From the sequence record MK509462: a DNA stretch of 64,000 nt; one strand, written 5' to 3'. The stretch's first letter is position 1. Each line of letters begins with the position of its first letter. Made by a program: the position numbers and the translations under genes. This DNA is from Shigella phage MK-13. Positions 5,932 through 28,707 of the stretch are shown here, piece by piece. The notes under the pieces were generated by a model. That model was not told where the DNA came from. It was given only the letters and a program-made list of their open reading frames with translations, and did not search any database.

Positions 5932-6661
5932 TATGAACGCACAGATCTATGACGCCCTTGAGCAGGGCAACGCATTTAACAATCCTCTCCCGTCCCTCAG
6001 CAGCACGTCTCAGGGTTTAATCACCAGCGGCAAGGCGACTACAGCTGCACTGGCAAACACCGGAAATACGCAAATCCAGGGCGCTCTGACGGCAGGCGGT
6101 CTAACCACGGCCAAGCTCAATGAAACGAACACGATGTTCACCTCTGCCAACACCAGCCTCACCACGCTGAACAACTATGGTGATCAGACTGTGAACGAAG
6201 CGTATTCCCGCATCGGGACTTCCGTGTCGTACAAATCTGGCCTGAAGTCAATCGAGCGCGAGCCGACCAACTGTGATCTGATCAATAATGCCTTCGGCGT
6301 CATACAGACTCTTGGGCGCCAGTGGATCGGCGCTATGGAGGGCGCTCTCAGCACTGTTACCGCCAAGATGGCCGAACTGGCTGAGTTAGTTGCGCAGGGT
6401 GTGAGCGCTGGCCTGGCAAAGATCCAGGCGCTGGCCGCCGAAGTTACCGGATATATCAACGATGCTATTGCTCAGGTGGCGCAAATCGGTCAGGATATCG
6501 CCAATGGTATTGCCTCAGAGTTGGCCCACATCCAAGACATGGTCAGCAAGTGTCTGAACTTCTCGTTCGCCAATGTACTGTCTGAGTGGGCTAAAGACCT
6601 GTGCGCTGGTGGTGTTATCAACAACATCGGTTCTGATAATCTGAAGAGCGCCCTGAAGTAA
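5932..6661 (+). CDS. hypothetical Ala/Thr/Gly-rich protein (243 aa)
   Basis: Long ORF; low-complexity T/A/G-rich N half, helical C half. Confidence 0.5.
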
Positions 6662-14944: not shown

Positions 14945-16165
14945 ATGAAAGATAAAGCCCTGGACGTCCCGTACTGCGGTGTCCGTGAAGAAAAGATAAA
15001 GTCGGCCAAACCGGTTCTCAGTCCGACCCATACCCGCCTTTCTTACGAATGGATGAGCGAGCGCTATAAGATCCACGTCAAGAAGGACGTCCAGCGTCTT
15101 CCTGCTCCTTGGACGAATAATCCTATACTACGGCAGGTCAAGTTCTGTAACGTCCGGAGAGAGCACGACAGGCAGTCTCTTAACCTGATCAACAACATCG
15201 TCAACAACGATGCTCTGGGTATGGCAGACAAGATGTTTAACTGCGTGCTGTTCCGCATGTTCAACCTCTGGGATCCGATCCAGGCTATCGGCGGCGCGAT
15301 GGCGATCAAAGAATTCGCCAAGATCAACCTTGACGCAACCCGCGAACGACTTCAGAAGTTCGAGGCCGACGGCGGCAAGGTGTTCACCAATGCCTTCAAC
15401 ACAGGCGGCCTGAAGCAATGCCTGGCTTTCCCTGAGCTGGTTGTCAACCACAAAGAGCAGCGCTTCGGTGGGATGATGGTGAACCTGATCTGTAAGGACG
15501 GTTCGACCCAGAACATGGATTATAAGGAAGCCAAGGCTATTGCTGAAGCAGAGCCGGACTTCTACACCATAGAAGGCTGGGAGCCGTACATGCCAATGCG
15601 TGTCATCCGTTCCCTGAAGGCATTCGTCAACAAGTATCCAAATTACTTCCATGACCTACTGCGCCTTGGTACTCCTCTGGAAGTATACCAGCGCATGTAC
15701 GACGACATCGAAGGTCTTGGTCCATTCCTGGCCTATCAGATCTGGGTTGATTTCACGTACATGCCTGGTTATCCGTTCAGTGAGAACCACTTCACGATCG
15801 CCGGACCGGGCTGTCGCGCAGGTATTGATCTGCTGTTCCTGAACAAGGACGGCATGACTCACGAAGAATGCATATTCTGGCTACGGGATAATCAGGACGC
15901 AGTATACTCCCAATATGGGTATGTTCGCGAGCAATTCTGGTCGGCCGAAGAGCCTGTAGACCAATGCATGAACGTTATGCAGCTGGAGAACATGTTCTGT
16001 GAACTGAGCAAGTACACTCGCTGTGTTGAGGCGGTTGGGCGCGGTGAAAAACCTCGGGGCAAGGTCAGCTATGACGGCGGTGGGGAATACAAAAAGCGCT
16101 GTGATGAAGTCGTGCTCAAACGTGGTTCCGTCAATTTGCTGGACCGTTTGAAGAAACCTGAATAA
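14945..16165 (+). CDS. hypothetical protein (406 aa)
   Basis: Long ORF with AGAGGA RBS; no motif recognised. Confidence 0.6.
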   Translation: MKDKALDVPYCGVREEKIKSAKPVLSPTHTRLSYEWMSERYKIHVKKDVQRLPAPWTNNPILRQVKFCNVRREHDRQSLNLINNIVNNDALGMADKMFNCVLFRMFNLWDPIQAIGGAMAIKEFAKINLDATRERLQKFEADGGKVFTNAFNTGGLKQCLAFPELVVNHKEQRFGGMMVNLICKDGSTQNMDYKEAKAIAEAEPDFYTIEGWEPYMPMRVIRSLKAFVNKYPNYFHDLLRLGTPLEVYQRMYDDIEGLGPFLAYQIWVDFTYMPGYPFSENHFTIAGPGCRAGIDLLFLNKDGMTHEECIFWLRDNQDAVYSQYGYVREQFWSAEEPVDQCMNVMQLENMFCELSKYTRCVEAVGRGEKPRGKVSYDGGGEYKKRCDEVVLKRGSVNLLDRLKKPE

Positions 16166-20055: not shown

Positions 20056-20910
20056 ATGTTTCGTTTGAAATTGAACGACCAAGATGTGTTCTACAAACAC
20101 TTCACCTTCCCAGGTGGTGAGGAACATATCAAGATCCAAAAGTCTGGTATCCCTATCGGCCACGTCCAGAACGTGGCGATTGATGCTCACATCAAATCAT
20201 CAGCCGACTTCGTTGAGCTGGCACTGCTGGTTAACGCCGTGCGCGGCCTGGGTAACGTGGACCGTCTGACGACCTTCCATGCGTATATCCCTTACTTCCC
20301 GTATGCTCGCCAGGACCGCCATTGCGACTTCGGCGAGCCTCTGTCCGTGAAGTGGGCGGCTGAGTTCATCAATAGCATGAACTTTGACCGCGTGGCGATC
20401 AAAGACCCTCACAGCCATGTTGTGTCTTCTCTTATCAACAACGTCCATGTGGTCCCGCAAGATTACATCGTGCGGCAGTATCTGGGCTGGTTCATCCGTG
20501 GGAACAACGCTGTGTTGGTAGCCCCTGACGGCGGCGCGGCTAAGAAGACCGAAGCCCTCAGCCTGTCTCTGGATGGCGTTCCTGTTGTCTACGGACACAA
20601 GAACCGTGACGCCAAGACTGGTGAGATCATTGGGGTGAGTATTACAACCCCTGAACTGATCAAAGACCGTTATCTGGTGGTGGTCGATGATATCTGCGAC
20701 GGTGGGCGCACGTTCGTTGAGTTAGGCAAAGAGCTTCAGAAGCACAAGCCCAAACACATGACGCTCTTCGTTACCCATGGCATCTTCAGCAAAGGGCTTT
20801 CCGTGTTCGACGGGATCTACGATGCTGTGTATGCCGACACTGTCTGGTGGGAGAATATCACCGCCGACGGTCTTCCTTTCAAAACTGAAAATACAGGACG
20901 TGTAAAATGA
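20056..20910 (+). CDS. ribose-phosphate pyrophosphokinase (Prs)-like; candidate ADP-ribose pyrophosphokinase
   Basis: Prs signature YFPYARQDR and PRPP-binding loop VVVDDICDGGRT. Confidence 0.85.
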   Translation: MFRLKLNDQDVFYKHFTFPGGEEHIKIQKSGIPIGHVQNVAIDAHIKSSADFVELALLVNAVRGLGNVDRLTTFHAYIPYFPYARQDRHCDFGEPLSVKWAAEFINSMNFDRVAIKDPHSHVVSSLINNVHVVPQDYIVRQYLGWFIRGNNAVLVAPDGGAAKKTEALSLSLDGVPVVYGHKNRDAKTGEIIGVSITTPELIKDRYLVVVDDICDGGRTFVELGKELQKHKPKHMTLFVTHGIFSKGLSVFDGIYDAVYADTVWWENITADGLPFKTENTGRVK

Positions 20911-22571
20911 GCATGCGCCACTTAGACCCAATCCATGCAATCGACTTCTACAAATCAGGGCACATCTATCAGTTCCCTGAAGGCAGCGAGCTGGTGTTCT
21001 CCAACGGAACTCCGCGCTCCAACAAACTGTTCAACTCTCACCTGCCGAAGAACGGCGTGGTGGTCTGGGGCATCCAGGGTTTCATGACTTGGTTCCATGA
21101 ACTGTTTGACGAAGCATTCTTCCAGCGCCCGAAGGCCAAGGTGTTGAAGAAGTATGCCCGTCGCATGAACAAAGTCCTGGGTCCAGGCCGCGTCGGCACA
21201 GAGCATATTGAAGCCCTGCATGACCTCGGCTACCTGCCTATCGAAGTCCGCGCGCTGCCTGAAGGCACCATGTGCCCGTATGGCGTTCCGGTGTATGTGA
21301 TGTTCAACACCCTGCCGGAGTTCTACTGGCTGACCAACTATCTGGAGACTGTGTTCAGCTCTGAGATCTGGAAGCCGATGACGAACGCCACTATCGCTCT
21401 GCATTACAAGGCACTGATGGTGAAAGCTGCCCTCGCTACAGGCGTGTCACCGGACCATTGGTTCATCGACTACCAAGGCCACGACTTCTCCTTCCGTGGC
21501 ATGAGCGGGTGGCATGACGCGGCGTCTTCCGGTTCCGGTCATCTGGTGTTCTTCAAAGGCACCGATACCAACCCTGCCCTGGACTTCGTTGAAGAGTATT
21601 ATGGCGCAGACATCGACGAAGACTATGTCGTTGCTGGCTCCGTTGCGGCTACAGAACACGCCGTGATGTGTATGGGTACGAAGGATGGTGAATTCGAAAC
21701 CTTCCGCCGCCTGGTGCAGGACGTGTATCCTGATGGCATCGTCAGCATCGTGTCTGATGCGTGGGATTACTGGCAGGTCATCGACGACTATCTCCCTCGC
21801 CTGAAAGATATTATCATGGCGCGTAACGGTAAAGTCGTGATCCGCCCTGACTCGGGCGACCCAGTTCATATCGTCGGCGGCTACCGCATTGAGGGGTTCA
21901 AAGACCGCGCCACGCTGAACATCAGCGGCGTGTCTAGCAGCACTGAAGTCATTCACATCGAAGAGACGAACACCTATCACCTGATCACAGGCGAAGGCAC
22001 GATCAACTCTCTGATGGCAGACGACCGTAATATCATCAGCCGTTCTGAAGCAGTCGGCTCTATCCAGCGACTGTGGGAGATCTTTGGCGGTACTCAAACT
22101 GAAACTGGCCACTTCCTGTTGGACGAACACATCGGTCTGATCTACGGTGACTCCATCACCCTGGCGCGTGAAGACCAGATCTTTAGCCGTCTGGCTGGCC
22201 GGAACTTCGCTTCCATCAACGTGGTGTTCGGTATCGGTTCCTACACCTACCAGATGAACACCCGTGACAGTACTGGCACGGCGGTGAAAGCAACGGCTGG
22301 TAAGGTGAACGGTGAATTCCGTGAGATCTTCAAAGAGCCGAAGACCGACAAAGGCGGGACTAAAAAGTCTGCGCGTGGTTTCCTTAAAGTCATTAAAGAC
22401 TCTCAGGGTAAACTAGTGTTGGTTGACGGTATCACCTTTGATCAGGTGCAAGACGCCGACAACCAGCACCAGCTGGTGTATCGTGATGGCAAGTTCTTCA
22501 ACACTCAAACTCTGGAAGATGCGCGTGTCCGCGCCGCTCCTCTGGTAGCAGAACTGGCATCACAAATCTGA
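20907..22571 (+). CDS. nicotinamide phosphoribosyltransferase (Nampt/NadV)-like; candidate nicotinamide ADP-ribose transferase
   Basis: N-terminal DFYKSGHIYQFP matches Nampt DSYKVTHYKQYP block; length 554 aa; start overlaps Prs stop (ATGA). Confidence 0.85.
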   Translation: MSMRHLDPIHAIDFYKSGHIYQFPEGSELVFSNGTPRSNKLFNSHLPKNGVVVWGIQGFMTWFHELFDEAFFQRPKAKVLKKYARRMNKVLGPGRVGTEHIEALHDLGYLPIEVRALPEGTMCPYGVPVYVMFNTLPEFYWLTNYLETVFSSEIWKPMTNATIALHYKALMVKAALATGVSPDHWFIDYQGHDFSFRGMSGWHDAASSGSGHLVFFKGTDTNPALDFVEEYYGADIDEDYVVAGSVAATEHAVMCMGTKDGEFETFRRLVQDVYPDGIVSIVSDAWDYWQVIDDYLPRLKDIIMARNGKVVIRPDSGDPVHIVGGYRIEGFKDRATLNISGVSSSTEVIHIEETNTYHLITGEGTINSLMADDRNIISRSEAVGSIQRLWEIFGGTQTETGHFLLDEHIGLIYGDSITLAREDQIFSRLAGRNFASINVVFGIGSYTYQMNTRDSTGTAVKATAGKVNGEFREIFKEPKTDKGGTKKSARGFLKVIKDSQGKLVLVDGITFDQVQDADNQHQLVYRDGKFFNTQTLEDARVRAAPLVAELASQI

Positions 22572-22613
22572 TAACCGAAGGGGAGGAAACTCCCCTGTTT
22601 TGAGGGAAACCTG

Positions 22614-22973
22614 ATGTCTGTGAAGATGAAAGGTGTCGAGTTCAATGCGTACTACCACGATGATGAATATTGGGTGAACGGCGCTTGGCACGACGATCAT
22701 TGCATCAAAGTCAATGGTGAATATCGCGAAGATGTAGACGCAGATATCCCCGATGACGCCGATGTGGTTATTGAATCCGGCGTGGTCTATGTTCCTGTGA
22801 ATGGCGAAAGCGGGGTGGAAGAAAAAGACATCTCACTCGTCACCCATTTCAAGAACTGGCGCAAACAGAAGAATTTCTCCTTCATTGTCGTGACGGTGGA
22901 GAAGAACAAGGTCGCCGATGTTCGCCAAGCCCTGCGGTCGATCCCTGGTGTCACCGAAGTCAAAGGTGGCTGA
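22614..22973 (+). CDS. hypothetical acidic protein (119 aa)
   Basis: ORF with GAGGGAAA RBS. Confidence 0.45.
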   Translation: MSVKMKGVEFNAYYHDDEYWVNGAWHDDHCIKVNGEYREDVDADIPDDADVVIESGVVYVPVNGESGVEEKDISLVTHFKNWRKQKNFSFIVVTVEKNKVADVRQALRSIPGVTEVKGG

Positions 22974-22975
22974 CA

Positions 22976-23145
22976 TGGCCAAACCATTTGAACGTGCGGG
23001 CGTCGACAACCTCGACCGCCGCTTTAGCCCATCGGAAACGCTGATGAGTCAGATTGAACTCAATCGCGATTTCCTGGAACACATGCTGGTCAAGCCGGAA
23101 GGTGAGGCCGAAGACAACCCTGAAGAAGGCAATAACGATGATTGA
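22976..23145 (+). CDS. hypothetical small acidic protein (56 aa)
   Basis: Short ORF tightly packed between neighbours. Confidence 0.3.
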
Positions 23146-25339
23146 ATCATTAGAATTTAAGAATGCGGTTGAGACTGCTGCCCCGTCCAACCATGTAATC
23201 GTTGTGGACATCTCTTATTCGATGTACCGTGCGCTCCCTGAAGTCCGTAAGCATCTGAAGGAGAACCTGCCTTCTCTGGTGAAACCGGAAGACACTGTGA
23301 GTGTTCTGTATTTCTCCTCCAAAGGCGACTTTGGCACAGTGTTTGCTGGTCGTCAAATCAGCGCGGCTTCCGACCTGAGTGAGATGAACAAACTGATCGA
23401 CCGCTTCCTACAACCGTCCGGATGCACCGGATTCGTGGAACCTCTGGGTCTGGCTGTAGACACCGCTCGTAGTCTGAAGAAGCCTGGTTATGTCAACAAC
23501 CTGGCATTCATGACCGACGGCTATGACAACTGCTGGCGCTCCAATGAAATCCTGGCCGTCGCCGAAACCCTGCCATTTGCTTTCGATAACATTACATTTA
23601 TCGAATACGGCTGGTACTGTAACCGCGAACTGCTGGCTCTGATGTCTGAGCGCTCCGGTGCGACCCACGTGTTTGCCGAAGGTCAGGTTGAGTATCAGGC
23701 CGAGCTGGAAACCGTGCTGAAGTCTTCAGTGCCGAAGGTGGTTGTTGATGTGCCTCTGCTATACACCCACGCCATCTATGTTGAAAACGGCGTGGCAACT
23801 GTTCTGGCAGTACAGGCAGACTCAGAGCATCCCGTTGGCCACGTGAGCATCCCTGAGAGCGTCACGAAGCTGTGGGTCGTCAATCCTAACATGATCGACC
23901 AGCTTGATGCGCTGGCGGACATCCAGGCGGCATACGTGCTGGCGTTCTATGGCGTACACATCATGGACGCCGATTTGGTATGGGCTGCCCTGAAGAAAAC
24001 GGGTGACGTTCGCTTCATCAAACAGTACAGCAACTGCTTCACCAAGCAGGACTACTCCAACATCAAGATCGATCTGGTTCAGGCTATTGTTGACGACCAG
24101 CTGCGCGGCGTTGACGGTATTGACTATGACCTGGTTCCAGCTGAAGATGCGACGACCGTCGTTGACGTGCTGACGTATCTGGCTGAAGCTGGCGTGTGTG
24201 TTGCTACCAAACATCCTATGTTCTCCTACAAGAGCATCGGTCGCGGTACGGCTCAGAAACTGGACGATACCGAAGACAAGCTGGCAGAACAGATCGCGAA
24301 CGCCGAGTCCAAAGAAGAGCGCAAAGCCCTGGCTCTCAAGCTGGCCGAGCACGAAGAGTGGAACCCGACGTTCGAACCTAACAACGATCTGGGTGTTGTG
24401 CCAATCAGCGATTTGGTCTATAACTCCGAACGCCCTAATATCAGTGTACGCACTGTCCAGCACGGCACTGTGGCGATTCCGGAGTTCGTGCAGAAGAAGT
24501 TCGGTCTGCCTGAAGAACTGGATACTTTCCAATGGCGCAACTACACCATCGTCAAAGACGGCATCATCAACGTGAAGACTCTGCCGTTCAGGGCTGATGT
24601 TGAAGTTGTAACCAATCTGTGCCAGATGGGCGTCCATGTGTTCGGTGGTCCGGAAGTGTTTGTCCTGAACCTGGAAAGCGTACCGCTGGTCAACCGCGCC
24701 ATGGTCAAGAACATCAGTGCTGCTCAGTTCTTTGCGGATAATGTCCGTCTGGAAGCCCTGAAAGGCAAGCAGAAGGTGCTGAAGTTCTTCCGTGATGAAC
24801 TGGTTGGCAAAGGTAACGCCAAAGGCCTGGCAGTACAGTACGGTGCTGAGGCGGCCGAGTTCCTGTCCTTCTACGGCATCCGTGATTACGGCTTCTCACC
24901 GAAGACCGAACTGAAGGACTCCACGGATGTCTACATGAGCCGTGAGCTGAACGTTAAGATCGCTGGAGCGTCTTCTCTGCCTAGCATCGCGGCAGTACAG
25001 AAGAAGATTGCCGAGAACAAGAAACTCAATGCGGGTGACTTGTTCATCGCCAATGCTCTGAAGGAATACGAAGCATTCGTGAAGTCTCCTGCGATCACTG
25101 CCGTGCCTGAAGCCGTACAGAAACAGCTGATCGAAAACTGGATCGACGCTGCTGCCAAGGCGGCCATCACTGAAGTCCGCGCCCTGAACAAGACGCTGTC
25201 TAAAGTGGTGTATGGTATCGTTGCTGGTCACGGCTGGTTCACCGACCTCGACCTGGAAGAGTCCACCATGGAAGTTGAAGTGGATGGTGTGAAGTACAAG
25301 GTCACTGCCGAACTGGCAGAGAAAGAGATCAAAATCTAA
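23138..25339 (+). CDS. von Willebrand factor A (vWA) domain protein (733 aa)
   Basis: MIDAS-like VVVDISYSM (D-x-S-x-S) near N-terminus followed by TDG...D elements; long C-terminal extension of unknown function. Confidence 0.65.
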   Translation: MIESLEFKNAVETAAPSNHVIVVDISYSMYRALPEVRKHLKENLPSLVKPEDTVSVLYFSSKGDFGTVFAGRQISAASDLSEMNKLIDRFLQPSGCTGFVEPLGLAVDTARSLKKPGYVNNLAFMTDGYDNCWRSNEILAVAETLPFAFDNITFIEYGWYCNRELLALMSERSGATHVFAEGQVEYQAELETVLKSSVPKVVVDVPLLYTHAIYVENGVATVLAVQADSEHPVGHVSIPESVTKLWVVNPNMIDQLDALADIQAAYVLAFYGVHIMDADLVWAALKKTGDVRFIKQYSNCFTKQDYSNIKIDLVQAIVDDQLRGVDGIDYDLVPAEDATTVVDVLTYLAEAGVCVATKHPMFSYKSIGRGTAQKLDDTEDKLAEQIANAESKEERKALALKLAEHEEWNPTFEPNNDLGVVPISDLVYNSERPNISVRTVQHGTVAIPEFVQKKFGLPEELDTFQWRNYTIVKDGIINVKTLPFRADVEVVTNLCQMGVHVFGGPEVFVLNLESVPLVNRAMVKNISAAQFFADNVRLEALKGKQKVLKFFRDELVGKGNAKGLAVQYGAEAAEFLSFYGIRDYGFSPKTELKDSTDVYMSRELNVKIAGASSLPSIAAVQKKIAENKKLNAGDLFIANALKEYEAFVKSPAITAVPEAVQKQLIENWIDAAAKAAITEVRALNKTLSKVVYGIVAGHGWFTDLDLEESTMEVEVDGVKYKVTAELAEKEIKI

Positions 25340-25381
25340 TCCAACGGGCGGGGCAACCCGCCTTTCTTTGGGAGAAGTAGC

Positions 25382-25708
25382 ATGAGCAGTAAACCAACAT
25401 ATGTTGAAGTCATGCGTCATCTGGCTCAGTACGCCACTGACAATCTGAACTTAGATGCAGACGAGGTGAAATACCCAAACGTCAAGAAAATGATTGACGG
25501 TGAAGTTGCCACAGACGATGCGTTGGATAAGTTTGCAGGCCTCCGCACCAAGAAGGATCTCGGCGGTGATGAACTGGACGCTATCGAAATTGTAATGGAC
25601 CTCGAAGAAGAGTTTCAGGTCGAAATCGACGACGGTTGGCTGGGTAGTAAAGGCGATGACCCGACCATGGGTGAACTCGCTGAACTCGTGGTTGCCCTGC
25701 GCAAATAA
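25382..25708 (+). CDS. acyl carrier protein-like protein lacking the phosphopantetheine-attachment serine
   Basis: DLGGDELDAIEIVMDLEEEFQVEI aligns with ACP helix II [24 protein letters not shown] but has Glu where the modified Ser should be. Confidence 0.7.
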   Translation: MSSKPTYVEVMRHLAQYATDNLNLDADEVKYPNVKKMIDGEVATDDALDKFAGLRTKKDLGGDELDAIEIVMDLEEEFQVEIDDGWLGSKGDDPTMGELAELVVALRK

Positions 25709-25714
25709 CAGAAG

Positions 25715-25739
25715 TCCCCAACGTTTGTTGGGGATTTTT
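25715..25739 (+). terminator. rho-independent terminator
   Basis: tccccaacgtttgttgggga followed by T-run. Confidence 0.7.
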
Positions 25740-25749
25740 ACTTTTAGGG

Positions 25750-25779
25750 GTTTACTTCCTCTAAGGAATATCCTATTAT
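25750..25779 (+). promoter_or_regulatory. T4-type early promoter (-35 GTTTAC, -10 TATTAT)
   Basis: GTTTAC, 18-nt spacer, TATTAT directly after terminator. Confidence 0.45.
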
Positions 25780-25831: not shown

Positions 25832-26071
25832 ATGAAGAACAAAATGGTCGAAACTTCAGTAGAGATTGATCGCAATTGGGGCTTGCTCCGCGCTAAAGGG
25901 TTCCGCCGTGTGTATGCGACCAAAGAGGTATATGCCCAGCGCCGTGACGTTATCATCAGCAAGAAGGGCAAAGAGTGGGTTGCTGAAGAAGTCGATGTTG
26001 AGACAGGCGTCGTCGGCAAGGTGAAAGCCAAGGCCGCGATCCTCTTCGCTCTTCTGAAGCACATCAGCTAA
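25832..26071 (+). CDS. hypothetical protein (79 aa)
   Basis: ORF with conserved aaggtaagattatatcATG context. Confidence 0.4.
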   Translation: MKNKMVETSVEIDRNWGLLRAKGFRRVYATKEVYAQRRDVIISKKGKEWVAEEVDVETGVVGKVKAKAAILFALLKHIS

Positions 26072-26083
26072 TTCTATAAACTC

Positions 26084-26133
26084 CGGCGGGGTATGATTAC
26101 CCCGTCTATTTGAAATGCAGGAACTATATCATG
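26084..26133 (+). repeat. intergenic hairpin cassette copy 1 (near-identical copy at 26643..26692)
   Basis: cggcggggtatgattaccccg...atttgaaa...tatatcATG; about 40 of 50 positions shared with copy 2. Confidence 0.7.
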
Positions 26134-26637
26134 ACCGATCAACAAATTCAAGATTTATTTTACCTCGCCCATGATAAGTCCCACATCATGCGCCCCGGTA
26201 CTGTTTCCCCTGCCGTCCGTGATCTGGTGCAAGAATTACGCGAACCACAGACGACCACACTTTATCGCGGGCTGCCTAAGGAGGACGTTGCGCGTTTAGA
26301 GATGTTGTTTGAACGAGGCGACATGTTCCAGACATGGGATTCTTGTCTTAGCTTCAGTGAACTGAAGCATGTGGCCAAACAATTTTCTAAATCGTACGGA
26401 ACCAAAGCTGTTGCCCGCATTTGTTACAAACATCGAAACGGACTCCCGGAGGGGCTTAATGTCTATGGTTCTCTAGAAAAATTTGTGAACAAAGGCGATG
26501 AATCAGAAATGGATATGCTGGACTTGGCGTCCATGGAGAAAGAATGGATATTCTGCCAGCCTCGCGTCATACCAGTTTCAAGAAAAATGGCAACAGACGG
26601 GACGATGGTTTTTACCGTATCACTTGTTACCCTATAA
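26131..26637 (+). CDS. hypothetical protein (168 aa), flanked by direct-repeat cassettes
   Basis: Start placed at ATG after conserved ctatatc context; bracketed by the 26084 and 26643 repeats. Confidence 0.5.
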   Translation: MTDQQIQDLFYLAHDKSHIMRPGTVSPAVRDLVQELREPQTTTLYRGLPKEDVARLEMLFERGDMFQTWDSCLSFSELKHVAKQFSKSYGTKAVARICYKHRNGLPEGLNVYGSLEKFVNKGDESEMDMLDLASMEKEWIFCQPRVIPVSRKMATDGTMVFTVSLVTL

Positions 26638-26642
26638 ACCCA

Positions 26643-26692
26643 CGGCGGGGTATGATTACCCCGCCCATTTGAAACCAAGAGACTATATCATG
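26643..26692 (+). repeat. intergenic hairpin cassette copy 2
   Basis: See copy 1. Confidence 0.7.
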
Positions 26693-27064
26693 AAAAAGTT
26701 AATCCTCGCTGTTGCCCTGCTGGGTGCTTCCTTTGCTGCTGTTTCCGCCCCTCCTGTCATCACCGGAGTGTCTACCAACGGCGTTTATGCTTTCAAGGCG
26801 TATGGCCAAGACCTCGTTCTGTATAAGAACGGGAAGATGATTGAGCGCTGTGTAGCGGATGGTGTAAACCGTGGGATCGACAATCAGGGCAGTCCGTTCA
26901 TCCTGGACTTCTATGCCTGCTCCAACGGGACGAAGACCTTTGGTGTCAAGACCTTCGGCAACGTCGCCGACGGCGGCTGGGGCTTCATGATCGAAACCCG
27001 CAACCGCCGCCCGGTCACGACCATTGAAGAAGAGTTCTTGATCTCTGTCGGGGGCACGTTATGA
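26690..27064 (+). CDS. putative secreted protein (signal peptide, 124 aa)
   Basis: N-terminus MKKLILAVALLGASFAAVSA is a classical Sec signal peptide. Confidence 0.5.
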   Translation: MKKLILAVALLGASFAAVSAPPVITGVSTNGVYAFKAYGQDLVLYKNGKMIERCVADGVNRGIDNQGSPFILDFYACSNGTKTFGVKTFGNVADGGWGFMIETRNRRPVTTIEEEFLISVGGTL

Positions 27065-27348
27065 CACCATCAGAGAGAAGTTCTATCAAGGAGATGATCA
27101 GAGACAAGGCGTGTGTTGGCCATACTCAGTCAGAGAACATCTTGCGCCTGATGGAGGTCAAGAATCATATCGACAATGGCCGATTCCAATCAGCGTTGTA
27201 TGGTATGCTGGAGTTTATATCGCGGTCATCTGATCTTGGCACGGTCCGATATCTTGACGATCTGACCAAGCTGCTGAACACGGGCGGGGAAACTTTCGAC
27301 ACCGCTCGTATCCTGATTGACGGTGGACCTGAAGAAGACGAGGTGTGA
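27061..27348 (+). CDS. hypothetical protein (95 aa)
   Basis: ORF overlapping upstream stop (ATGA). Confidence 0.45.
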   Translation: MTPSERSSIKEMIRDKACVGHTQSENILRLMEVKNHIDNGRFQSALYGMLEFISRSSDLGTVRYLDDLTKLLNTGGETFDTARILIDGGPEEDEV

Positions 27349-27458
27349 TGGTGGACATTGAATTTTGGGGTTGGCTTATTGGATGTTCATTGGGCGTCTT
27401 GCTCGTTTTGTTGTGTGAATATCTCGGAGCCGTACTGTGTAAGACATTTCACGCCTAA
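27348..27458 (+). CDS. hypothetical small membrane peptide (36 aa)
   Basis: Sub-threshold ORF, start overlaps upstream stop; single hydrophobic helix GWLIGCSLGVLLVLL. Confidence 0.3.
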   Translation: MVDIEFWGWLIGCSLGVLLVLLCEYLGAVLCKTFHA

Positions 27459-27491
27459 CTAAGGGATAATCCATATCCCGAGGTGAATCTC

Positions 27492-27941
27492 ATGTTCATG
27501 TCTTCCTTCATAGACTGGTTGAACATTATCAACGGCCTGAGGATTCCTGTCGGAAACCTCGGGCTTTCTCGTTCTTCTATGCCACAGATCGACGATGACA
27601 AGCAGCAGGCGTTCCATGACTACCTGGAGGAACTTGGCATCACCATCGACGCTGGCCAGGTTCCTATCAAATCCCTCCGTCTCACCCAGAACGAAATCAA
27701 CAAGATGAAGGTCTGGAAGATCATGAAGAACATCAGAAACAAGAAGCCCATGGGTCGGGTTTGGGTGTCTTCTGATAACTATGTGGTCGACGGCTCGCAC
27801 CGCTATGTCGCCGCCCTGAACATGGATGACCGTCAGCGCATCAAGGTCTACAAAGTGGACATGCCAGCGATGGAGTTCGTCAAGGTCGCCAAGCAGTTCA
27901 AGGGTGTGAAGTTCAGAACCGTGTCTGACGCTCGCTTCTGA
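27492..27941 (+). CDS. ParB/sulfiredoxin-like nuclease-domain protein
   Basis: VVDGSHRYVAA resembles ParB N-terminal-domain GxxR-type motif; GAGG RBS. Confidence 0.45.
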   Translation: MFMSSFIDWLNIINGLRIPVGNLGLSRSSMPQIDDDKQQAFHDYLEELGITIDAGQVPIKSLRLTQNEINKMKVWKIMKNIRNKKPMGRVWVSSDNYVVDGSHRYVAALNMDDRQRIKVYKVDMPAMEFVKVAKQFKGVKFRTVSDARF

Positions 27942-27963
27942 ATACGATAGTTTATTGAAACCC

Positions 27964-27992
27964 TTTACTCAACATGGTGATCCGCCTATCAT
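27964..27992 (+). promoter_or_regulatory. T4-type early promoter (-35 TTTACT, 17 nt, -10 TATCAT)
   Basis: cccTTTACTcaacatggtgatccgccTATCAT. Confidence 0.4.
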
Positions 27993-28020
27993 TTCATCCA
28001 ATGAAATAAGGAGAATCACC

Positions 28021-28707
28021 ATGAAACGTTTAATCCTCGGGGTCGTGCTGGCTGGTCTGGCATTACCCGCCGTCGCCAAGCTGAACTCCACAGGTGACAA
28101 ACTGTGGTCTGATCTTTCCTACTGTGCTGGGTTCTCCCAGGCAGTCGCCATCGACAAGTCTGGTTCCATAGAGAACTTTGCTGAACTCTGGAACACAGGC
28201 AACGTCTCCACTGCAGTTGTTAACGCTGGGATTGAGTTCAACCGTTACAAACAGGGAGCCTATAACCTCAAGGGCTACCTCAATGACGACGAATTTAATC
28301 GAGGCGGCATGGAGGCTGGCGATCTTATCATGACTGGGCGTATGGGCACCCAAGGCCGAATGACAGTCAGACAGTGCCGTTCTCTCCCTTCTCCGGCATT
28401 ACAGAAGGGTGTGCAGATAGGCCGCCGCCACCTGAACCTCATCAACGATGGCAATCAGTGCATCAAAGTATTCGAATACAGCGCTACGCAGACCTCTGAT
28501 CGAGTCCTGAAGAAGGAATGGCGCACCCGCGCCCTCGACCTCAGGGCATGGTTGGTGGAGAACGATTATTACTTTGAAGACAGGGTTCAGAACGGCCTGA
28601 AAGACCTGGCCACGAATCTGAGCGTGAACCTTGATGATCCTCGCATGTCGCGCGAACTCCAGCAGACTCGTGTTGACTGCGACAATATGATGAAGGAGAA
28701 CGAGTGA
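28021..28707 (+). CDS. putative secreted protein (signal peptide, 228 aa)
   Basis: MKRLILGVVLAGLALPAVA signal peptide; AAGGAG RBS. Confidence 0.55.
   Translation: MKRLILGVVLAGLALPAVAKLNSTGDKLWSDLSYCAGFSQAVAIDKSGSIENFAELWNTGNVSTAVVNAGIEFNRYKQGAYNLKGYLNDDEFNRGGMEAGDLIMTGRMGTQGRMTVRQCRSLPSPALQKGVQIGRRHLNLINDGNQCIKVFEYSATQTSDRVLKKEWRTRALDLRAWLVENDYYFEDRVQNGLKDLATNLSVNLDDPRMSRELQQTRVDCDNMMKENE

Follow-up and report, generated by a model that had tools for sequence, protein, structure and literature searches.

A conserved homologue of acyl carrier protein without its attachment serine in Shigella phage MK-13 and related phages

Introduction

What use does a bacteriophage have for an acyl carrier protein (ACP) that lacks the serine to which its prosthetic group should be attached? 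The question is raised by a coding sequence of Shigella phage MK-13 (sequence record MK509462), which lies at 25382..25708 on the + strand of the 64,000-nucleotide stretch analysed here (the window), opens with ATG and encodes a protein of 108 residues with the fold of an ACP and glutamate in place of the attachment serine. It is referred to below as pseudo-ACP. Phosphopantetheinyl transferases (PPTases) transfer the 4'-phosphopantetheine (4'-PP) group onto a serine hydroxyl. ACP is a highly connected hub of the bacterial cell, serving fatty-acid, lipid A, biotin and lipoate synthesis and making contacts with SpoT, IscS and MukB, and to our knowledge no virus targets this hub. A first-pass annotation, made from the sequence alone, had suggested that the protein might inhibit host ACP-dependent enzymes or an ACP-interacting defence component, or serve as a decoy for them.

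The analysis described here leads us to propose that pseudo-ACP is a non-carrier protein of ACP fold which works by binding another protein through the face formed by its helix II, a reading to which we attach a probability of roughly 80%. The more specific mechanism, in which it acts as a decoy and its target is a host client of ACP that does not depend on phosphopantetheine, is a serious possibility that falls somewhat short of an even chance.

Results and discussion

Pseudo-ACP is a homologue of ACP

Pseudo-ACP is a genuine homologue of ACP, the similarity being well beyond chance. Its residues 59-78, DLGGDELDAIEIVMDLEEEF, share 14 of 20 amino acids with residues 31-50 of E. coli ACP, which belong to helix II, and the D-S-L-D motif of ACP has its counterpart in D63-E64-L65-D66 (25568..25579, +), with Glu64 encoded by GAA at 25571-25573. 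Comparison with E. coli ACP by hhalign (probability 96.7%, P 3e-10, 57% identity over 30 columns) set Glu64 opposite Ser36, and a phmmer alignment with B. subtilis ACP (2x2b/1hy8/1f80; E ~8e-6) likewise placed it opposite the attachment serine. The Pfam model PF00550 (PP-binding) was matched with 26.2 bits against a gathering threshold of 20.8 (E 1e-5), and PHROG 4154, 'acyl carrier protein', was matched at full length (6.7e-55). The NCBIfam equivalog models for AcpP were missed (TIGR00517, 32.9 bits against a cut-off of 70.45; NF002148, 33.1 against 71), and because these scores of ~33 bits fall so far below cut-offs of ~70, pseudo-ACP is not to be regarded as an AcpP equivalent. Profile searching, to which the first-pass annotation had looked for a possible contradiction, thus places the family with ACP and not with some other four-helix family. 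The best match in the PDB was to B. subtilis ACP (29.6 bits, versus 25.2 bits for E. coli AcpP), and a recent capture of the gene from host AcpP was rejected on this ground.

The predicted structure agrees with the sequence comparisons. A model derived from an alignment of the family only (29 sequences) was unusable (pLDDT 45), and the AlphaFold2 (AF2) model used here was built on alignment A4, whose 111 sequences include distant relatives; it has a pLDDT of 84.8 and a pTM of 0.79. The dominance of canonical ACPs in this alignment biases the model towards the ACP fold, a caveat that is mitigated by an independent BFVD model of the ViI orthologue, with which it agrees at TM 0.81-0.83. Four helices are modelled, namely I (residues 7-21), II (64-78), III (84-89) and IV (96-107); the structure prediction originally suggested as a check on the assignment returned the four-helix ACP fold. 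The top 50 matches in a Foldseek search of the PDB were almost all ACPs or carrier domains, with a probability of ~1 and a best target-normalised TM of 0.73-0.78, and among them are structures of ACP bound to AcpS, FabZ, LpxD, complex I and Nfs1-ISD11. In the model, Glu64 is predicted to be the first residue of helix II, at the point from which Ser36 of ACP projects its prosthetic arm.

The serine is replaced by an acidic residue throughout the family

Relatives were gathered as 28 cluster representatives from a search of 5.8 billion sequences, and an exhaustive search of 1.84 billion representatives with a hidden Markov model added seven more divergent full-length relatives (P0029-P0036). Among the 37 unique family members, with identities down to ~35%, the serine site is occupied by Glu in 31 and by Asp in six, and in none by Ser; there is no alternative conserved serine, S89 being variable. 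Phage CBA120, for instance, reads GGDDLD at this site, and the Klebsiella and Serratia Taipeiviruses are also acidic there. The more distant Serratia phage KNP4 (Miltonvirus) encodes an ACP-like protein of normal length (90 residues) with the motif DLNFDELD, again with Glu. The search for the same change in other phages, which the first-pass annotation had recommended, returned an acidic residue throughout the family, and its view that the protein cannot bear 4'-PP at the canonical site is upheld. To judge from its sequence, pseudo-ACP does not undergo phosphopantetheinylation at that site and hence is not a carrier.

The codons GAA, GAG, GAT and GAC are all found at site 64 across the family, and the site has therefore changed repeatedly yet stayed acidic. 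Under the genetic code no serine codon can be turned into a glutamate codon in a single step, which argues that the replacement is an old, selected state and not a recent lesion. Comparison with the orthologue in Salmonella phage Maynard gave a dN/dS of 0.045 at a dS of 0.31, as expected for a gene under purifying selection. One metagenomic copy, P0028 (an ENA contig of 1568 bp), is frameshifted after residue ~56, leaving 80 residues and no helix II; a sequencing error may account for this, or else the copy is a rare natural knockout.

A tblastn search found the pseudo-ACP gene in 270 phage records. Among the matches listed, all were to Ackermannviridae-type genomes of ~150-160 kb, except for one short match, confined to the motif, in a Pseudomonas jumbo phage. 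The gene is a core gene of these ~270 Kuttervirus, Agtrevirus, Limestonevirus and Taipeivirus phages, whose hosts are overwhelmingly enterobacterial (Salmonella, Escherichia, Shigella, Klebsiella, Dickeya, Enterobacter, Serratia and Yersinia). The MK-13 region itself is 96-97% identical to those of Shigella phages ChubbyThor and Gloob. Many phages with this gene are under development for the biocontrol of Salmonella, E. coli O157, Dickeya and Klebsiella. Many GenBank records label the protein 'acyl carrier protein', a name which spreads an implied metabolic function that pseudo-ACP cannot have. Given the missing attachment serine and the failure to reach the equivalog scores, it ought to be neither filed nor annotated as an ACP, and the label should become 'ACP-like protein lacking the phosphopantetheine attachment serine'.

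It might still be argued that pseudo-ACP is a functional acyl or aminoacyl carrier that is loaded at an unconventional site or by unconventional chemistry. Such a role would accord with the database label and with the passing of the Pfam PP-binding threshold, and ACPs that do bear the serine are present in other phages (ICP1, cyanophage MED4-213 and Brevundimonas phage Bajun). It is opposed by the loss of the attachment serine in 37 of 37 members with no conserved serine to take its place, which speaks against any carrier role, and by scores far under the ACP equivalog cut-offs; also, a scan of the ~15 neighbouring genes between 14.9 and 28.7 kb revealed no gene for a PPTase, an acyltransferase or a Fab-type enzyme. 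The carrier hypothesis is extremely improbable, and close to refuted.

Constraint is concentrated in helix II and loop 3

The distribution of conserved residues bears on how the protein might act. Weighted column entropy is 0.82 bits in helix II and 0.79 bits in loop 3 (GDDPT), as against 2.30 bits in an insertion in loop I. Helix II, the acidic recognition helix (residues 63-78, of which 64-78 are helical in the model; 25568..25615, +), is the most constrained helix of the family. Its residues D63, L65, D66, I68, E69 and E75 are invariant (alignment A2). The AcpP residues D35, L37, D38, E41, M44, E47, E48, E49 and F50 are all kept, and D63, D66, E69, M72, E75, E76 and E77, which correspond to AcpP D35, D38, E41, M44 and E47-49, are invariant or nearly so across the family. 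Retention of the acidic recognition helix, as the first-pass annotation had it, is borne out by D63, E69 and E75/E76, the equivalents of AcpP D35, E41 and E47/E48.

The canonical docking helix is thus preserved, but it is ringed by a signature of the family's own. In the 28-sequence core alignment the additional invariant residues are R55, K57, W86, G88, D92, D93, P94 and T95. Helix III together with loop 3 (residues 84-95, DGWLGSKGDDPT; 25631..25666, +) carries invariants without a counterpart in AcpP. The loop-I insertion (approximately residues 22-55; 25445..25546, +; alignment A3) amounts to ~21-34 residues not present in canonical ACPs; it is variable in sequence, and two short helices (34-38 and 45-52) are modelled within it at a pLDDT of ~74. 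Compared with bacterial AcpP (PF00550, TIGR00517), then, pseudo-ACP has the same four-helix fold, a similarly very acidic character and a helix II region that is 57% identical over 30 residues. It differs in having Glu or Asp for Ser, with no 4'-PP and no carrier function; in the ~21-34-residue insertion, the GDDPT loop and the invariant R55/K57 preceding helix II; in a helix III whose acidic residues are replaced by the invariant W86 and G88; and in a score under half the NCBIfam equivalog cut-off.

The composition of the protein, with 26 Asp+Glu versus 12 Lys+Arg, a pI of 4.2 and a net charge of ~-14, might suggest that it binds simply as a generic polyanion and that its descent from ACP is incidental, whether it serves as a nucleic-acid mimic, an acidic chaperone or a buffer for divalent metal ions. 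Acidic mimics are common in phages, gp5.9 being one example (PMC7617805). In a variant of this idea the DELD cluster would strengthen the known metal-binding site A of ACP, and established ACP biochemistry does imply that an extra carboxylate beside D63 and D66 would enlarge the acidic or metal-binding cluster. However, conservation is position-specific: M72, L65, I68, W86, P94 and T95 are invariant, whereas the equally acidic loop-I insertion varies. The fold search, moreover, gave only ACPs and no DNA-mimic folds. A purely electrostatic role is accordingly judged improbable.

A proposed mode of action by protein binding

In the reading that we favour, pseudo-ACP would bind its partner through the same face by which ACPs dock on theirs. 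This face would take in acidic helix II, its N-terminus included, together with the adjacent helix III and loop 3, and would have Glu/Asp64 at its centre. The target is proposed to be a host enzyme or complex that recognises helix II of ACP without requiring the prosthetic group. Candidates are AcpS; PlsB, which is inhibited by apo-ACP; and MukB, by which apo- and holo-AcpP are bound equally. During infection pseudo-ACP would then behave as a non-modifiable, dead-end analogue of apo-ACP, and the carboxylate of Glu/Asp64 might in addition mimic the phosphate of the 4'-PP arm. The strict requirement for a carboxylate at this site, and not Ala, Thr or Asn, could reflect either such a phosphate mimic, gripped by an arginine or lysine of the partner, or a metal ligand. 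In the Isd11 system, Arg6 of Isd11 grips the 4'-PP phosphate (PMC8547962).

Several published observations make a decoy or inhibitor of host ACP partners plausible, by analogy and from the residues retained. Docking of ACP on AcpS requires D35, E41 and E47/E48 (bioRxiv 10.1101/2025.01.28.635281); all of these AcpS-docking residues are present in pseudo-ACP, as D63, E69 and E75/E76, and D38 and M44 are kept too (D66 and M72). According to PMC3896788, apo-ACP potently inhibits the growth of E. coli through glycerol-3-phosphate acyltransferase (Keating et al. 1995, cited therein). The analogy behind the decoy idea is that in this case an ACP free of its prosthetic group can still dock on a client enzyme, block it and stop growth. 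The inhibitor there is the host's own unmodified protein, artificially over-expressed, whereas pseudo-ACP would be a diverged and permanently unmodifiable homologue. The ATPase of MukB is stimulated equally by apo- and holo-AcpP (PMC8602292), and MukBEF is a documented target of phages, being inhibited by gp5.9 of T7 (PMC7617805).

In its sharpest form, the proposal is that pseudo-ACP is a high-affinity dead-end ligand of a low-abundance host client of ACP, either AcpS or the AcpP site on MukB, with its carboxylate imitating the 4'-PP phosphate. So narrow a version is unlikely. If it were true, blocking of AcpS would lead to a build-up of apo-ACP and a shut-off of phospholipid synthesis, or else occupation of the MukB site would disable the host condensin, and pseudo-ACP would give the first known case of a viral protein that hijacks the interaction hub of ACP. 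More generally, a host partner could point to a new mechanism of host takeover and offer a scaffold for inhibitors of AcpS, PlsB or MukB.

A number of considerations weigh against a host-directed decoy. First, no part of any ACP is more conserved than helix II, to which the homology also owes its detection, so its retention is weaker evidence for mimicry than it might appear. Pseudo-ACP is no nearer to enterobacterial AcpP than to B. subtilis ACP, and shows no specific resemblance to host AcpP beyond generic ACP conservation. Helix III lacks the acidic E57, E58 and E60 of AcpP, and W86, G88, the DDPT loop, R55 and K57 are invariant; these family-specific invariants would point to an interface of the protein's own and not to a copy of that of AcpP. 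Secondly, host AcpP is present at ~100 uM, or 86-358 thousand copies per cell (PMC8602292), and a simple competitor would therefore need very high expression or much tighter binding. A block of AcpS would also be slow to act, because the pool of holo-ACP is large. Thirdly, some partners of ACP are poor candidates: SpoT does not bind apo-ACP (PMC3896788), and IscS needs Ser36 (PMC13343975). Since the Ser36/4'-PP form is required, both are unlikely targets, including SpoT, which stood in the original list. Finally, the conserved position of the gene behind that for a von Willebrand factor A (vWFA) protein suggests a partner encoded by the phage, as discussed below. No functional study of pseudo-ACP was found in the literature on phage ACPs and serine-less ACPs, and nothing relevant in that on Ackermannviridae transcriptomics. 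A single spectral retrieval of Sajous1 gp186 in virion mass spectrometry was discounted as a trace. The further suggestion of a link to an ACP-interacting defence component did not survive, as the sole PADLOC match was non-significant (E 0.009), and a role in a defence system was rejected.

The nearest functional precedent, on grounds of analogy, appears to be the mitochondrial ACP (mACP) of apicomplexan parasites. In Plasmodium falciparum the serine of mACP is changed to Phe (Cys or Gly in Toxoplasma), and the protein is a phosphopantetheine-less subunit of the Isd11-Nfs1 complex (PMC8547962). Like pseudo-ACP, it has lost the serine; it serves as a binding subunit without the prosthetic group, has its replacement residue at the interface with its partner, and keeps the acidic contacts of helix II. 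It differs in that the replacement is hydrophobic, the partner is the LYR protein Isd11 of Fe-S biogenesis, and the protein belongs to an organelle of eukaryotes; beyond shared ACP ancestry nothing indicates that the two are directly related, and no LYR-type partner has been identified for pseudo-ACP. The same study found no serine-less ACPs outside Apicomplexa and one chromerid (PMC8547962), and the substitution in Ackermannviridae phages was not noted in the literature found on phage or serine-less ACPs. Phosphopantetheine-less ACPs were thus already known from Apicomplexa, and the serine-less phage form departs from them in its acidic replacement.

The upstream vWFA gene as a possible source of the partner

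Immediately upstream of pseudo-ACP lies a gene (23138..25339, +) for a protein of 733 residues with an N-terminal vWA domain (Pfam VWA, 22.2 bits, just below the gathering threshold; phrog_2426). Its metal-ion-dependent adhesion site (MIDAS) is complete, comprising D24-x-S26-x-S28 (23207-23221), T97 and D127, all invariant in 11 orthologues (alignment A5). A profile of the protein gave a weak match to the vWA domain of TRAP via the MIDAS motifs; no sequence homologue was found in the PDB and no match in NCBIfam, and for the remaining ~550 residues the PDB sequence, NCBIfam and profile searches gave no known match. The vWFA gene directly precedes that for pseudo-ACP in all eight of the close relatives examined, metagenomic ones included (~35-50% identity in pseudo-ACP), and the order 58-residue open reading frame (ORF), vWFA, pseudo-ACP, 79-residue ORF recurs in Maynard, CBA120, KpS110, IME250 and metagenomic relatives.

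The vWFA stop codon and the pseudo-ACP start are separated by only 42 nt, in which no promoter-like site was found, so that the pseudo-ACP gene appears to be read from the vWFA transcript. The gap contains a GC-rich hairpin (25346..25363, +) followed by a weak T run. In eight relatives the stem is retained through compensatory changes (GGGCGGGG/CCCGCC, GCCGGGG/CCCGGC, GGGGGC/GCCCCC; alignment A7) while the T tract degenerates, a pattern that suggests a role at the RNA level (attenuation, processing or stability) rather than that of a simple terminator. The hairpin is probably a leaky terminator, an attenuator or an RNA-stabilising element, and the two genes are probably co-transcribed through it. 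The first-pass annotation had described pseudo-ACP as an isolated gene. This description must be abandoned, since the gene forms the 3' end of the vWFA transcription unit.

This arrangement gives rise to the main alternative proposal for the identity of the partner, in which pseudo-ACP serves a protein of the phage itself, most specifically vWFA, as its small acidic subunit or ligand, and Glu/Asp64 completes the coordination of the MIDAS metal. The ACP fold would on this account be a repurposed scaffold, as it is in complexes that have ACP as a structural subunit. Completion of a MIDAS by an exposed carboxylate (Asp or Glu) of the ligand is well established for integrin I-domains, midasin and CMG2. 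Besides the probable shared transcript, the adjacency in close relatives and the invariant MIDAS, the proposal accommodates residue 64, which is always acidic and is predicted to lie where the fold is most exposed, in the first turn of helix II. The invariance of W86, G88, DDPT, R55 and K57 would likewise imply a dedicated interface. A vWFA protein of at least 60% identity is found in 268 phage records, a number close to the 270 with the pseudo-ACP gene. The Plasmodium mACP, whose replacement residue lies in the Isd11 interface, provides a precedent (PMC8547962).

The phyletic distribution, however, does not uphold an obligate pairing. Approximately 234 further phage genomes encode a full-length vWFA protein, of at most 46-49% identity, with an intact MIDAS. 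They include Slopekvirus and further Straboviridae, Shewanella phage Thanatos, and phages of Rhizobium and Bacillus, and those examined (Slopekvirus and Shewanella phage Thanatos) have no ACP-like gene nearby; nor did tblastn detect any member of the pseudo-ACP family, genome-wide, in the Cronobacter, Citrobacter, Rhizobium and Bacillus phages. Closer at hand, Aeromonas phage phiA8-29, a member of the Ackermannviridae whose vWFA protein is 68% identical, has no ACP-like gene at the locus, and in Serratia phage KNP4 a distance of ~880 nt, with intervening ORFs, separates the ACP-like gene from that for vWFA. As Ackermannviridae are generally syntenic, adjacency alone carries little weight. The vWFA protein clearly works without pseudo-ACP in many phages, and the pairing is possible, not obligate. 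We consider it rather unlikely that pseudo-ACP is a ligand of vWFA or of another phage protein; were this so, the ACP fold could be said to have gained a new role, that of a structural ligand, and a MIDAS site might be what it engages.

The vWFA protein has features of interest in its own right. It is conserved over its full length between Ackermannviridae and T4-like Straboviridae (Slopekvirus, Shewanella phage Thanatos) at 46-49% identity, and many motifs in its C-terminal part are invariant, for example NCFTKQDYS, RPNIS and GIRDYGF. In GenBank it goes under conflicting names, among them 'tail protein', 'minor tail protein', 'magnesium chelatase' and 'vWFA'.

Local signals and neighbouring genes

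The local signals reported for the pseudo-ACP gene in the first-pass annotation are real. A putative Shine-Dalgarno sequence, GGGAGA (25370..25375, +), read directly from the DNA, lies 6 nt 5' of the ATG. An intrinsic terminator (25715..25745, +) lies 3' of the gene and consists of a hairpin at 25715-25734 (stem TCCCCAAC, loop GTTT, stem GTTGGGGA) followed by a T run, with the tail TTTTTACTTTT; it is kept in relatives of the Kuttervirus/Agtrevirus type and absent in Taipeivirus (alignment A6). The sigma-70-like promoter TTTACT-17-TATTAT (25751..25779, +), which has nine of 12 consensus matches, serves the next gene (25832-26071). Both of its hexamers are invariant in seven diverged relatives (alignment A6). 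This promoter stands outside the pseudo-ACP unit and marks its 3' boundary. Its flanks, GG...TTCAATAAC, are invariant across genera, and it heads a run of small genes (25832-28707); a Pfam search of the genes at 26131-28704 gave no matches.

On the other side of the pair, genes for Prs (ribose-phosphate pyrophosphokinase, 20056-20910) and Nampt (nicotinamide phosphoribosyltransferase, 20907-22571; PF04095, 6.7e-32) and a 119-residue ORF form a block at 20056-22973 on the + strand. The block is missing at the same position in Salmonella phage Maynard and present in a metagenomic relative (L007), and is therefore an accessory insertion just 5' of the vWFA/pseudo-ACP pair. Together Prs and Nampt form an NAD+ salvage pair, of a type that has been described as a means by which phages counter NAD+-depleting defences.

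Some 9 kb 5' of pseudo-ACP, a gene for a 5-hydroxymethyldeoxyuridine (5-hmdU) DNA kinase (14945-16165, +; PF18723 HMUDK_hel, 3e-81) marks MK-13 as having a thymidine-hypermodification pathway of the ViI type. It is followed by a gene for a protein of 672 residues (DUF8224 family in L007). Phage PhiW-14 also has a protein of ACP fold. A link between pseudo-ACP and thymidine hypermodification was considered and set aside, since the attachment serine is absent; the chemistry of the pathway needs no carrier protein.

Other ACP-like proteins with and without the serine

The serine-bearing ACPs of other phages (phrog_5934; ICP1, MED4-213, Bajun) are, like pseudo-ACP, small phage proteins of ACP fold, and are filed as auxiliary metabolic or host-takeover genes. 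Unlike pseudo-ACP they keep D-S-L-D and could be phosphopantetheinylated, and they are without the loop-I insertion, the W/GDDPT signature and the vWFA neighbour. The ACP-like genes of ICP1 (L021, 2348-2668; 84 records) and of the T4-like cyanophage MED4-213 (L022, 1342-1809) are annotated only as 'hypothetical protein'.

Loss of the phosphopantetheine serine may be recurrent among phage ACPs. Vibrio phage 277E43-1 (L052, OX241464.1, 53589-54122) encodes a serine-less ACP-like protein that reads NLGFDNLD, with Asn at the site, and has a long C-terminal extension. A further serine-less protein, P0045, reads NLGADELD, with Glu, and is encoded at 6001-6297 of an unrelated phage-like contig (L005) which also bears ThyX and HNH genes; a scan of viral contigs with P0045 as query gave no matches. 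Of 180 ACP-like domains collected, 45 have Asp or Glu at the serine site, a proportion that is inflated by the Glu at this position in the query profile and is not a population frequency. Serine-less ACP-like proteins with the motif DLGADDLD are also encoded on cellular contigs (P0135, from L008-L010, and P0073). P0135 has a relative in a metagenome-assembled genome of Planctomycetaceae (L024) and begins with the lipobox-like MGVLLTGC, for which reason it may be exported. The gene for P0073 lies directly 3' of three genes of the NuoL/M/N type and one for an aminotransferase.

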